The notes below the pieces were generated by a model. It made no database searches and was not told the DNA's origin. It saw only the letters and a program-made list of their open reading frames with translations. This document shows, piece by piece, positions 3,753-64,000 of a stretch of 64,000 nucleotides of DNA (the first letter of the stretch is position 1; every line of letters begins with the position of its first letter). A program made the translations under genes and the position numbers. The DNA is from Octopus vulgaris (Eukaryota). The stretch lies in assembly GCA_951406725.2 (NCBI GenBank), contig OX597827.1:31744001-31808000 (forward strand), written 5' to 3'.

Positions 3753-3969
3753 GGGACCCCTCTTTCATCTGCGTTTTGAGAATTTTGCTGCCTTTTTGTT
3801 GAGTGAGTTCGTATTTTTTGTTCGTCGTTGTTTGTGTTACTCGTGAATTGAACAGTTGTCCGTTGTGTAACAGTAATTTTCGCCCTACGGGGCGGAAAAT
3901 TCTGTGTTTAAACATTGACATTACCTTCGAGGTAATTTTTTTGAAACATTTGTTCTCATAATTTGAGAA

Positions 3970-5401
3970 ATGGAGTTCGACTTGGTGTCGAGGAGTGACT
4001 TTCCCGTGATGGGAAAAGGTGAACAAAAGGATACCGAAGTCAAAAAACAGTCTTTTTCGGCCGCAGTGGGCGGAACCGTAACGGATGTAGAATTCAAGAT
4101 TGAACAGTTATTCGAATACCGGAACTTGGTAAAAACGGAAGGCAATGAAATTAAACTGGTACCGCCGCAAGCGAAGGTACAGGAAATAAAGGCAAAGACA
4201 GTTGTATACAAAGTTTATAGCAACAAAGAAAAAAAAATAATGGATGTCAAGAACGAGATAGTAGAAAAGTGCTTGTCTTCGGTGTGGAACAAAATTCGCC
4301 ACGTTGTTCGAGGTGCTCGCAGCGCTACCGTTGAAGCACATTCCGACTCGGCTGATGTGGCAAGAGAGGTGTCATCAATGACCTTGAAAAATGAGGATAT
4401 CATGTTGCTACCTTCGTATATGGGAAAAAGAACAGCCAAACTACATGTAGAGGATATACCAAGAGGGTATGATATAATGTGGGTAGCAGCGGCAGTCCTG
4501 CACAACGTAGAGCGGGAAGTTTCAATTCTGCAGATGAGAAGGAATGAGGAGGTGCACTGGAAAGGACAAGCGCTAGAACTCCTCGTTCAAGCAGAAAATA
4601 AGATACTAGAAAACTTACCCGATAGGGTATTTAATGAGGAGGGAACTTCAATGAGAGTGTCAGTGGAGGGGCGCAGACCTAGGTGCTTCAAATGTGGCGA
4701 AAAGGGTCACGTCCGCTCAAACTGCATAAAAAAAAAAATCAACGAAGCCCCTCCTCAAAGTGCTTCAAACACTGAAAAAGAAAAGGTGGAAAAAGAACCC
4801 AAGACTGCGACAAGGAAAGGAACCGAAACGGAAGATGAAAATGAACAGATGGAATATACACAGGTGACACACAAAAGATAAAAGATAACACCCTGGACTC
4901 CCCTCCCCAAACAAAGAAAAAATCAGCAAACACCGCAGAGATACAAACAAAACAAATTCCCCAGCCCTACCCCCACGGCACTGTATTCATTGGAACACAG
5001 TTCGCCAAGCCCCTCCCCATAAAACAAGATTTGAAAAAATTGATTAAAAAAATGAAAAGATTATAGCATTTGACGAGAAGAACGATAGGGTGTACAAGTA
5101 TTTCAAATTTTCAAAATTTAAACTATTCAGTAAGTCTACAGACACAAAATCAACCACTCGCTTTGCAAAAATAAAGGAAGACGAGTGGAAGGAAAAAACA
5201 CTACAAGAACATTTAAAGAATAATCTCATCAGAGATGTAACGAATGAAATACTGGAGGGTAAACTCATTATAACCCCGGCAACCACACCTACTCAGAGCC
5301 CGATGGCAACGCCGGTTAAGAGCCCTGCAGCTACGACCACAAGGGAGGAAGAAGGGGAAGCAGGCAGATTTAAACTGTCATGCTCTCTGTCCCAACCGTA
5401 A
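3970..5401 (+). mobile_element. Tx1/L1-like LINE ORF1 (gag-like, zinc knuckle), distal part frameshifted
   Basis: 303-aa ORF with CFKCGEKGHVRSNC (CX2CX4HX4C) preceded by EGRRPR. Broken frames continue to about 5401, directly upstream of an APE start. Confidence 0.85.
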
Positions 5402-26724: not shown

Positions 26725-28546
26725 ATCATCATCATCATCATCATCATCATCATTTAGCGTCCGTTTTCCATGCTAGCATGGGTTGGACAGTTCTGCTGGG
26801 GTCTGTGAAGCCAGAAGGCTTCATCAGGCCCAGTCAAATCTGGCAGTGTTTCTACGGCTGGATGCCCTTCCTAACGCCAACCACTCCGTGAGTGTAGTGG
26901 GTGCTTTTTACGTGCCACCCGCACTGGTGCCAGACAGAGCTGGCAAACGGCCACGAACAAATGGTGCTTTTTATGTGCCACCGGCACGAGGGCCAGGCGA
27001 GGCTGGCAACGGACACGAAACGGGGCGGTGCTGGCAACGGTCGCGAAACGGAAAGTTCTCTTACATGCCACCGGCACTGGTAACACATCTGCAATTTCCA
27101 TTGATCGATTTCCATTGATCGATTTCGATTCTGATCCTCACTTGCCTCAATGGGTCTTCACAAGCAGAGTTTCGACATGCCACCGGCACTGGTAGCACAT
27201 CCGCAATTTCCATTGATCGATTTCGATTCTGATCCTCACTTGCCTCAACACGTCTTCACAAGTAGAGTTTTGTGTCCCAAGAAGGGAAGGTATGCATACG
27301 TAGGCTGGCTCCATCCCATGTAGAAGGCCACGGGTTGTGGACTCACTTGTCCTGCCGGGTCTTCTCGCGCACAGCACACTTCCAGAGGTCTCGGTCTCTA
27401 GTCATTTCCTCAGTGAGACCTAAAGTTCGAAGGTCGTGCTTCACCACCTCGTCCCAGGTTTTCCTGGGTCTGCCTCTTCCACAGGTTCCCTCAACCGCTA
27501 GGGTGTGGCACTTTTTCACACAACTATCTTCATCCATTCTCGCCACATGACCATACCAGCGCAAACGTCTCTCTTGCACACCACAACTGATGCTTCTTAG
27601 GTCCAGCTTTTCTCTCAAGGTACTTACACTCTGCCGAGTGTGAGCACTGACATTACACATCCATCGGAGCATACTGGCTTCATTTCTAGTGAGCTTACGC
27701 ATATCCTCAGCAGTCACGGCCCATGTTTCACTGCCATGTAGCATGGCTGTTCGTACACACGCATCATACAGTCTGCCTTTCACTCTGTGCGAGAGGCCTT
27801 TTGTCACCAGCAGAGGTAAGAGCTCTCTGAACTTTGCCCAAGCTATTCTTACTCTAGCAGTTACACTTTCAGCACACCCGCCCCCGCTGCTGACTTGGTC
27901 ACCTAGGTAACGGAAACTATCAACTATTTCTAGTTTTTCTCCCTGGAAAGTGACAGAAGTTGGTCTCAGAGCATTTTCAGTGTTTATTGTTCCTGAGCAT
28001 CTGCCACATACAAAAACCATCTTCCTAGTTAGCCTTCCTTTGACATTGCTGCATCTCTTATGTGTCCATAGCTTACACTTGGTGCATCTTATAGAGTTTC
28101 TACCTACACCTTTTCTACAGATCGAGCAGGGCCATCTACCTGAAGGTGTTTGTGATTTGTCAACCTTCCTACTGATTACGACTTTGGTTTTAGCTAGATT
28201 GACTCTGAGGCCCTTCGATTCTAATCCTTGTTTCCACACCTGAAACTTCTCCTCCAGTTCTGATAGCGACTCAGCAATTAGAGCAAGGTCATCAGCATAG
28301 AGGAGCTCCCAAGGGCATCCTGTCTTGAATTCCTCCGTTATTGCCTGGAGGACTATGATAAATAGGAGGGGGCTGAGTACTGAGCCTTGGTGGACCCCTA
28401 CCTCTACCCGGAATTCTTCACTGTACTCATTTCCAACCCTCACCCTACTAGCGGCGTCCCTATACATGGCCCGCACAGCTCTCACTAACCATTCATCTAT
28501 CCCTAGTTTTCCTCATTGCCCACCAGATAAGGGATCGGGGACCCTG
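26725..28546 (-). mobile_element. Second copy of the same RTE LINE, cut off by the assembly gap
   Basis: ORF 27343-28485 is near-identical in protein to 34041-35756 (YADD, PHD-like Cys cluster, RWYGHV). It has the same 3' UTR repeats and a (cat)n tail on the + strand. Confidence 0.92.
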
Positions 28547-28646
28547 NNNNNNNNNNNNNNNNNNNNNNNNNNNNNNNNNNNNNNNNNNNNNNNNNNNNNN
28601 NNNNNNNNNNNNNNNNNNNNNNNNNNNNNNNNNNNNNNNNNNNNNN
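28547..28646. other. Assembly gap (100 N)
   Basis: Run of N. Confidence 1.
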
Positions 28647-33805: not shown

Positions 33806-33889
33806 TCGGCTGACGAGTACGAGCCATCTGTATTCACTGCATTTTTTGTAGCTTATTAAAGATGTCCTCGTACGAAACGATCGTACCGA
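33806..33889 (+). ncRNA. Type I hammerhead ribozyme, intact core
   Basis: UCGG-CUGACGA-GUACGAG...CUCGUAC-GAAA-CGAUCG-UA-CCGA. Stem II is 7 bp with a CAUCU/AGAUG extension, stem III is the palindrome ACGAUCGU, predicted cut after 33885. Confidence 0.88.
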
Positions 33890-33917
33890 GATTTTAATCC
33901 ATTCTTGTTGCTTTTTT

Positions 33918-33953
<36 letters not shown>

Positions 33954-33956
33954 AAT

Positions 33957-36232
33957 AAAGAGAGTCTGCCGAATATCGACCCAACAGATGGACCAGCAAT
34001 CCGAGTTGACAGTTCCTTAGTAGTTAAGGCAATTACAAGCATGAAAACAGGGAAAGCCCCAGGCCCATCAGGAATTGCTGCAGAGATGCTCAAAATATCT
34101 GGTAGTGTCGGCTATGGCCTAGTCACCCGTATAGTTAACCAGGTGATACACGAAGGAGTCAATCCCAATGACTGGTGTAGCAGCATAATAGTCAACTGCT
34201 ACAAAGGTAAAGGTGACGCCCTAGATACAAATAACTACAGGGGTATCAAGCTGCTGGATCAGGTAATGAAGGTTACGGAGAGGATTATAGCCCAACTAAT
34301 TAGAGAGAGAGTTAGCTTAGATGAGATGCAGTTTGGGTTCGTGCCAGGGAAAAGTACTACTGATGCTATATTCCTGGTAAGACAGCTGCAGGAGAAATAC
34401 CTAGCTAAAGATAAGCCCCTGTACCTGGCTTTTGTTGACATGGAGAAAGCCTTTGACAGGGTCCCCCGATCCCTTATCTGGTGGTCAATGAGGAAACTAG
34501 GGATAGATAAATGGTTAGTGAGAACTGTGCGAGCCATGTACAGAGACGCTGCTAGTAAGGTGAGGGTTGGCAACGAGTACAGTGAAGAATTCCGGGTAGA
34601 CGTTGGTGTCCACCAAGGTTCAGTCCTCAGTCCCCTCCTATTTATCATAGTCCTCCAGGCAATAACGGAGGAATTCAAGACAGGATGCCCCTGGGAGCTC
34701 CTCTATGCTGATGACCTCGCTCTAATTGCTGAGTCACTATCAGAACTGGAGGAGAAGTTTCAGGTGTGGAAGCAAGGTTTAGAATCGAAGGGCCTTAGAA
34801 TCAACCTAGCCAAAAGCAAAGTCCTAATAAGTAGGAAGGTAGACCAATCACAAACGCCTTCAGGTAGATGGCCCTGCTCGATCTGTAAAAAAGGTGTAGG
34901 TAGAAACTCTATAAGGTGCACCAAGTGTAAGCTATGGACACATAAGAGGTGCAGCAATGTCAAAGGAAGGCTAACTAAGAAAATAGTTTTTGTCTGTGGC
35001 AGATGCTCAGGAGCAATGAACGCTGAAAATGTGCAGAGACCAACTTCTACCACGTTCCAGGGAGAAAAACTAGAAGTAGTTGATAGCTTCCGCTACCTAG
35101 GTGACCAAATCAGTAACGGGGGTGGGTGTGCTGTAAGTGTAACTGCTAGAGTAAGAATTGCCTGGGCAAAGTTTAGAGAGCTCTTACCCCTGCTGGTGAC
35201 AAAAGGCCTCTCGCTCAGAGTAAAAGGCAGACTGTATGATGCATGTGTACGTACAGCCATGCTACATGGTAGTGAAACATGGGCTGTGACTGCTGAGGAT
35301 ATGCGTAAGCTCGCAAGAAATGAAGCCAGTATGCTCCGATGGATGTGTAATGTCAGTGTTCATACTCGACAGAGTGTAAGTACCTTAAGAGAAAAGTTGG
35401 ACCTAAGAAGCATCAGTTGTGGTGTGCAAGAGAGACGTTTGCGCTGGTATGGTCATGTGACGAGAATGGCTGAAGATAGTTGTGTGCAAAAGTGCCACAC
35501 CCTAGCAGTTGAGGGAACCTGTGGAAGAGGTAGACCCAGGAAAACCTGGGACGAGGTGGTGAAGCATGAACTTCAAACTTTAGGTCTCACCAAGGAAATG
35601 ACTAGAGACCGACACTATGGAAGTATGCTGTGCATGAGAAGACCCGGCAGGACTAGTGAGACCATAACCCGTGGCCTCTACCTGGTATGTAGCCAGTCGA
35701 CTTATACATACCTTTCCTTCTTGGGACACAAAACTCCACTTGTGAAGACCCGTTGAGGCAAGTGAAAATCAAAATCAAAATCAAAATCAAACCAAATCAA
35801 ATCAGATATCAGAAAGCAGAACCAAAATCGAAGTCGATCAACATCAATGGAAATTGCCGCCCCGACTGGCTTCCGTGCCGGTGGCACGTAAAAAGCACCA
35901 TCCATTCATGGCCGTTGCCAGCCTCGCCTGGCCCCCGTGCTGGTGGCACATAAAAAGCACCATCCGATTGTGGCCATTGCCAGCCTCGCCTGGCCCCCGT
36001 GCCGGTGGCACGTAAAAGCACCATCCGTTCGTGGCCGTTTGCCAGCCCCGTCTGGCACCTGAGCGGGTTGCCCGTAAAAAGCACCGTCTACACTCACGGA
36101 GTGGTTGGCGTTAGGAAGGGCATCCAGCCGTAGAATAACTGCCAGATTAGACTGGGCCTGATGCCTGATGCTAGCATTGAAAGCGGACGCTAAATGATGA
36201 TGACGATGATGATGATGATGATGATGATGATG
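33957..36232 (+). mobile_element. 5'-truncated RTE-clade LINE: RT domain, internal PHD-like finger, 3' UTR with tandem repeats and (TGA)n tail
   Basis: ORF 34041-35756 has KAPGPSG, NYRGIKLL, QFGF, FVDMEKAFDRV, GVHQGSVLSP, YADD, FRYLG and RRLRWYGHV...RGRPRKTW. Comparison with the second copy shows a frameshift near 35610. The 3' region ends in gacgctaaa(tga)n. Confidence 0.92.
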
Positions 36233-63798: not shown

Positions 63799-63983
63799 TT
63801 AGTAAGTGCCACACTTTCGAATGTTGAATTCAACTATCATTTCGAGCATATTTTCCAGAACATTCCTCATCTTTGTCTCATCGACAGCACAGGTTATATG
63901 TGTATAGATGTTCTTCTTGTTGGGTTTCTTCTCCAGAAACTTGTCCTTGATATACTCCTGGCACTGTTCAGGACTGTTGTCTC
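63799..63983 (-). CDS. Final coding exon of a divergent heterotrimeric G-protein alpha subunit (Gi/o-like C-terminus); upstream exons lie beyond the window
   Basis: Manual translation after acceptor ttctatttgattcgcag: (G)DNSPEQCQEYIKDKFLEKKPNKKNIYTHITCAVDETKMRNVLENMLEMIVEFNIRKCGTY*. It contains IYTH-x-TCAxD (G5 box) and aligns without gaps to the G-alpha-i alpha5 helix, ending C-G-x-aromatic. Confidence 0.9.
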
Positions 63984-64000
63984 CTGCGAATCAAATAGAA

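Follow-up and report, generated by a model that had tools for sequence, protein, structure and literature searches.

An octopus G-alpha-VI gene: structure, class membership and changes in the alpha5 helix

The window, the whole 64,000-nt stretch of Octopus vulgaris DNA that was analysed, carries near its end the last exon of a G-alpha gene that is intact, spliced and single-copy. Judged by its sequence, the gene is a member of a known, poorly characterised class referred to as G-alpha-VI, Gc or G-alpha-a, and the rewritten alpha5 helix reported in a first-pass annotation of the exon is mostly an old trait of that class. The product is probably a receptor-activated GTP switch in which alpha5 has been repacked rather than loosened.

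Exon, gene and surrounding window

The segment at window 63799..63983 on the minus strand corresponds to exactly one exon of 185 nt, phase 1, which ends in TAA and is preceded by an AG acceptor at 63985-63984. It matched positions 283-333 of the Pfam G-alpha model (E 1e-9) as well as solved Gi/Gt chains (E ~1e-7), a similarity far past chance by these scores. The splice acceptor and both matches bore out the first-pass assignment of the segment as the last exon of a G-alpha. From TCAVD to the C-terminus the exon aligned without gaps to Gi3 and to the last exon of the octopus genome's own Gi. Gi1 residue numbers were assigned by counting back from the C-terminus, Gi1 having 354 residues, and all six substitutions reported earlier (T329E, N331K, V332M, F336L, L348I and L353T) were present in this alignment. 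A DNA search of the octopus genome with the exon returned one match, the window itself, and the public records P0001, P0004 and P0006 already annotate the exon. The features of the gene are as follows.

G000:C14:31851343-31851226, minus strand: exon 1
G000:C14:31846910-31846726, minus strand: exon 2
G000:C14:31838146-31837881, minus strand: exon 3
G000:C14:31814741-31814613, minus strand: exon 4
G000:C14:31813007-31812878, minus strand: exon 5
G000:C14:31810384-31810231, minus strand: exon 6
Window 63984..64000, minus strand: 3' end of the 2,247-nt intron 6, including the AG acceptor
Window 63799..63983, minus strand: exon 7 of the G-alpha-VI gene (last coding exon; alpha4, beta6, TCAVD loop and alpha5), codons 328-388 plus TAA
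Window 63802..63894, minus strand: TCAVD loop and alpha5 helix, residues 358-388, equal to Gi1 324-354 by alignment (modelled helix 363-385), with the key residues E363 (T329 site), M366 (V332), L370 (F336) and C385 (-4)

The full gene spans G000:C14:31851343-31807799 (minus strand), 43.5 kb running past the end of the window. Its seven exons have GT-AG borders and give 1,167 nt and 388 codons without an internal stop; the six upstream exons, whose recovery had been proposed as a check, were all found intact past the window. The joined product was identical to P0006 (XP_029654428.1, Octopus sinensis) at 388/388 positions. In records named Octopus vulgaris the product is broken at the 23-kb third intron into two proteins, an N-half (P0003) and a C-half (P0001).

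Half or more of the words from the exon region occurred in 19 of 24 sequencing runs. These runs were presumed to be RNA, and the spliced joint itself is the evidence. When reads were compared over exons 4-5 in four runs from four studies, one contig in each (4/4) skipped the 1,605-nt intron between exons 4 and 5, and the loose contig ends matched the last bases of exon 3 on one side and the first bases of exon 6 on the other. Transcript support was thus obtained, exons 3-4-5-6 being spliced in 4/4 runs compared, which indicates that the split annotation is wrong and that a single transcription unit covers the gene. Contig X1 had 383 nt left after exon 5, where 339 are needed, and was therefore long enough to include the exon 6-7 joint. 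The intact 388-codon frame together with splicing ruled out a pseudogene.

In one contig from one of the four runs, an A>G change on the coding strand was seen at G000:C14:31814649 (L067:8649; exon 4, codon 221), converting CAA to CGA beside switch I (Q221R); it is either an allele or A-to-I editing. Elsewhere in the window, 100 N in a row at 28547-28646 probably mark an assembly gap. Two opposed retroelement frames, at 33852-35756 (plus strand) and 27343-28512 (minus strand), were also found, each with a reverse transcriptase and, after it, a weak PHD-finger match. An open frame of 304 residues at 3967-4881 (plus strand) contains a CCHC zinc knuckle and is likely gag-like.

Class membership and relatives

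Seven G-alpha loci were found in the octopus genome: this gene, G12, Gs, Go, Gi, Gq and Gv. The identity of the Gi, Go and Gq loci was supported by named neighbours in a 40-row tree, and three others we take to be Gs, G12 and Gv from their motifs. The Gv-labelled locus is separate, lies on C25 and has a TTAT loop, the octopus G-alpha-VI protein having TCAV. The Gq gene contains two similar tandem exons for the alpha4-beta6 region (L055:4703-4974, on G000:C18), which suggests alternative exons.

The careful tree (40 rows, LG+G4; midpoint roots only) set 16 rows including the octopus gene apart from s, i, o, q, 12 and v at 100/100. This group contained Acropora Gc (AFZ78087.1 = P0378, 'alpha c G protein'), a Nematostella member, Lymnaea G-alpha-a, amphioxus and the hemichordates Glandiceps and Ptychodera (P0039, P0126), and inside it cnidarians, deuterostomes and spiralians branched in species order. 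A quick 71-row tree with a midpoint root gave the same group with 33 rows (SH-aLRT 100). The best non-cephalopod relatives, at ~40-51% identity, were gastropods, bivalves, a chiton, annelids, a nemertean, brachiopods, amphioxus, the two hemichordates and anthozoans; no ecdysozoan or vertebrate names were found among the matches falling in the G-alpha-VI group. The octopus protein was 33-35% identical to Gi/Go/Gq versus 42-45% to Gc and G-alpha-a.

The idea of a lineage-specific G-alpha did not hold, as the octopus gene falls at 100/100 in an ancient class with anthozoans, other spiralians, amphioxus and hemichordates. The phylogeny called for in the first-pass annotation placed the protein outside Gi/o/q/s/12/v, but with an already described class. 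What stood was the view of a real, divergent and functional-looking G-alpha exon, in agreement with the intact spliced gene and its tree placement. A cephalopod-specific gene was ruled out by orthologues from cnidarians to deuterostomes in the 100/100 group.

Proteins from Amoebidium and Pigoraptor (P0045, P0204) grouped with the class to the exclusion of every other row, at 100/98. They carry different subsets of the class traits, G202A, R205K and E245D in one and M332 and V336 in the other, and both retain R242, T329 and T182; the subsets hint at a pre-animal origin of the class. The Terebratalia protein P0040, named 'G protein subunit alpha 12a', fell in G-alpha-VI and not with G12. Misleading names (Gi2-like, Go-like, G11-like, 'G12a') and one split octopus annotation mean that an entire G-protein pathway can be overlooked in work on cephalopod signalling.

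The name G-alpha-VI comes from a 2023 preprint (bioRxiv 10.1101/2023.09.14.557824, partial text), which gives anthozoans, spiralians and a single amphioxus as members and treats coral Gc as the same class. This membership is as in the present trees, and the probe primers given there encode SGKSTF and VVFFAS, both found in Nematostella P0135. In the preprint amphioxus is the only deuterostome, whereas two hemichordates were also found here, and the P-loop is given as GXGESGKS, whereas Glu43 was absent from all 48 class rows aligned below. Since Octopus bimaculoides is among its searched taxa, the orthologue may already be in its supplementary tree. A divergent holozoan G-alpha family including Nematostella, Lottia and other holozoans (PMC3971589, partial text) is probably the same class, matched by description.

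Compared with G-alpha-i/o, the octopus protein has the same fold, catalytic residues, C-terminal CGx(F/Y) and, by approximate exon borders, intron positions. In contrast, it is ~34% identical, lacks Gly2, E43, R242, E207 and T182 and has another alpha5 core, and its gene lacks the codon-54 intron of G-alpha-i/o, as does octopus Gq. A closer relative, G protein alpha-a of Lymnaea stagnalis, was reportedly described in 1995 as an atypical neuronal G-alpha. That protein (CAA87631.1 = P0022) is 45% identical, lies on the molluscan branch and shares the helical-domain insert and the alpha5 pattern, but it ends in RSKNY without the -4 Cys and has Val329. Acropora palmata Gc (42% identity, E 4e-107) likewise has M332/L336 and no Gly2, and coral Gc is described as being without N-terminal lipid sites (PMC3515558, partial text). 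Unlike the octopus protein, Gc keeps T329 and D150 and lacks the helical insert, Cys3 and the -4 Cys.

Conserved core and residue changes

The octopus protein matched PF00503 with 343 bits against a cut-off of 48.8, and the Ras-like domain, the inserted helical domain and alphaN were all present, as were the motifs GxxxxGKST, R214, T217, DxxGQ, NKED and TCA. No nucleotide-binding or catalytic residue is lost (K46, S47, T48, R178, T181, D200, G203, Q204, NKxD and TCA in Gi1 numbering). The predicted structure was a complete G-alpha (pLDDT 82) that overlaid over its full length on solved Gi heterotrimers (TM 0.73). The insert at residues ~116-150, encoded by exon 3 (G000:C14:31837881-31838146), is disordered in the model; the region 113-155 is 95% identical to Argonauta and contains RRLS, a possible candidate basic-kinase site. 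A [RK]R-x-[ST] motif in residues 95-190 was seen in 16 of 29 mostly molluscan rows, a count made without a chance control.

Identity of the octopus protein was 98.5% to the O. bimaculoides C-half, 88% to Argonauta, 72% to a cephalopod-type cluster and 45% to the chiton orthologue; for comparison, octopus Gq was 94% identical to squid Gq and 83% to chiton Gq. By these identities the G-alpha-VI protein is evolving faster than Gq, yet conserved.

Residue changes were counted in 48 class rows (34 spiralian, 3 deuterostome and 11 cnidarian) and 16 outgroup rows, the 48 being related cluster representatives and not independent draws. The amphioxus isoform P0038, the partial Nematostella P0139, P0197 and the truncated P0054 were excluded. 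Met332 was found in 47/48 class rows and Phe336 in none (Leu 36, Ile 8, Val 3, one gap). Asn331, Glu43, Arg242 and Glu207 were likewise absent (0/48 each). E245D was universal (48/48), R205K occurred in 36/48, and Thr182 and Cys214 persisted in 2/48 and 1/48 rows, respectively, the octopus protein having T182I. All 37 bilaterian class rows had G202A. No class row had an N-terminal MG myristoylation start (0/48), the octopus protein starting with MSC. Four residues of switch I/II near G-beta differed (I184V, F199I, H213P and C214F). The alphaN contacts I19, D20 and L23 were kept, and G203 and R208 were invariant.

Other changes were confined to smaller groups. Thr329 remained in 2/34 spiralian rows versus 14/14 cnidarian and deuterostome rows, Asp150 was absent from spiralians (0/34), and spiralian rows carry a ~30-residue helical-domain insert. 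The -4 Cys (3/48) and Cys3 (octopus and two others) were found in cephalopod-type rows only, and Glu329 only in the octopus protein and Argonauta. The -2 residue was Leu in 13/48 class rows, and the last four residues, which are read by the receptor, were freely variable across the class.

Accordingly, the changes described in the first-pass annotation as a rewritten alpha5 helix are real but for the most part not novel to octopus, M332 (47/48) and the loss of F336 (Phe in 0/48) being class-wide. The -4 Cys and -3 Gly are indeed present; the -4 Cys can hardly be called kept when it occurs in 3/48 rows. Because only three cephalopod-type rows have it, this Cys was probably gained rather than retained, and the Gi-like CG ending would be a late convergence. 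Within the searches made, the hemichordate members, the class-wide Gly-Arg-Asp triad with the loss of E43 and R242, and the further changes layered on these in spiralians and in cephalopods may be new. G-alpha-VI is a natural test of residues held universal for G-protein activation (E43, R242, E245 and F336).

Activation of the octopus product

Mutation of F336 in Gi1 speeds spontaneous GDP release (review PMC5207459, partial text), and this is the basis of the earlier suggestion that the octopus protein exchanges nucleotide rapidly. In the octopus protein, F336L is accompanied by V332M, I49F and F196Y. The alpha5 pocket volume, summed over six positions, was 1061 in both the octopus protein and Go, and group means were 1042-1065 versus 1061; this is a rough test. 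A conserved volume together with these accompanying changes suggests repacking. The larger M332, F49 and Y196 would occupy the room vacated by F336L, so that the change would be unlike cavity-making Ala mutants.

The class is nearly unstudied, and one qualitative assay was found. Coral Gc yielded a product protected by GTP-gamma-S when acropsin 1 was present in the light, but not in the dark (PMC3515558, partial text); the dark control belongs to a qualitative protease assay with 100 uM GDP versus 10 uM GTP-gamma-S. By analogy, this need for opsin and light argues against self-activation in the class. Repacking and the light dependence in coral together are why receptor-dependent activation is ranked first here. 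However, T329 and D150 are both retained in coral Gc but lost in spiralians, so the result may not transfer to octopus. The four differing switch I/II residues near G-beta and the low identity to Gc (42%) also tell against the ranking. Neither kinetic rates nor an effector for G-alpha-VI, nor any cephalopod study of it, was found in the literature covered, which lay outside subscription journals and bioRxiv supplements.

Under receptor-dependent activation, the octopus protein would use its conserved alphaN and switch II surface to bind GDP and G-beta-gamma, and a GPCR, possibly a non-visual opsin as with coral Gc, would engage the class-specific alpha5 tail and trigger GDP release. Loss of the E43-R178/R242 clamp, with that of T329 and D150 in spiralians, might raise basal exchange moderately while leaving it receptor-dependent, a rise to which we give a roughly even chance. 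T182I likely blunts ordinary RGS proteins, Thr182 being central to RGS binding (PMC3386157, partial text), and signals would then decay slowly. Cys3 is a possible cephalopod palmitoylation site that could substitute for the lipid anchors absent in the class. The unusual receptor set proposed earlier is plausible. Rapid exchange, the other proposal, is weakened by the class-wide alpha5 repacking and the coral dark control, less so for spiralians: loss of E43 and R242, Asp in place of E245 and the spiralian loss of T329 and D150 leave room for a faster basal rate.

An unlikely alternative is that spiralian G-alpha-VI loses GDP spontaneously, as plant G-alpha does, and is controlled by a GAP, a GDI or phosphorylation instead of a receptor. 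In simulations GDP can leave only once the contact between E43 and R178 has broken (PMC3400569, partial text); with Glu43 at 0/48 this contact cannot form in G-alpha-VI, and Arg242 is likewise at 0/48. The scarcity of T329 in spiralians (2/34 versus 14/14 elsewhere), the absence of Asp150 (0/34), the ~30-residue insert and the free variation of the receptor-read last four residues point the same way. Against this stand the opsin and light dependence of coral Gc (PMC3515558, partial text), the conserved pocket volume and the occurrence of Met at 332 or 336 in outgroup fungal G-alphas. Moreover, loss of T182 would take away the RGS brake used by the Arabidopsis self-activator; grasses, though, show that both can occur together. 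The specific version, in which self-activation follows from the E43/R242 loss, the Gly-Arg-Asp triad, the T329/D150 loss and a disordered insert with a putative basic-kinase site, is similarly doubtful. If it were true, molluscs and annelids would have a plant-like, receptor-independent G-protein pathway, and the spiralian form offers a direct test case for an animal G-alpha running without a receptor.

It is very unlikely that the protein binds GTP and, through a rewired switch II/III, releases G-beta-gamma poorly and serves as a sink or scaffold. A network of E43, R242, R205 and E245 has been proposed to release G-beta-gamma in all G-alphas (bioRxiv 10.1101/2020.11.15.383679, partial text), and it is altered class-wide (E245D 48/48, R205K 36/48, E207 0/48). 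On the other hand, G203 and R208 are invariant, Asp retains the charge, most Glu substitutions were only intermediate in yeast (same preprint, partial text), and activated Gc takes a protease-resistant active shape (PMC3515558, partial text).

Finally, a fast-evolving cephalopod Gi/Go offshoot or a pseudogene is extremely improbable: the best solved-structure matches are Gi, the protein ends in CGxY as Go does and database names read Gi2-like, Go-like or G11-like, but the gene is intact and spliced in a genome with its own Gi and Go, orthologues range from cnidarians to deuterostomes, identity is 34-35% to Gi/Go versus 42-45% to Gc/G-alpha-a, and placement in the 40-row tree refuted the offshoot.
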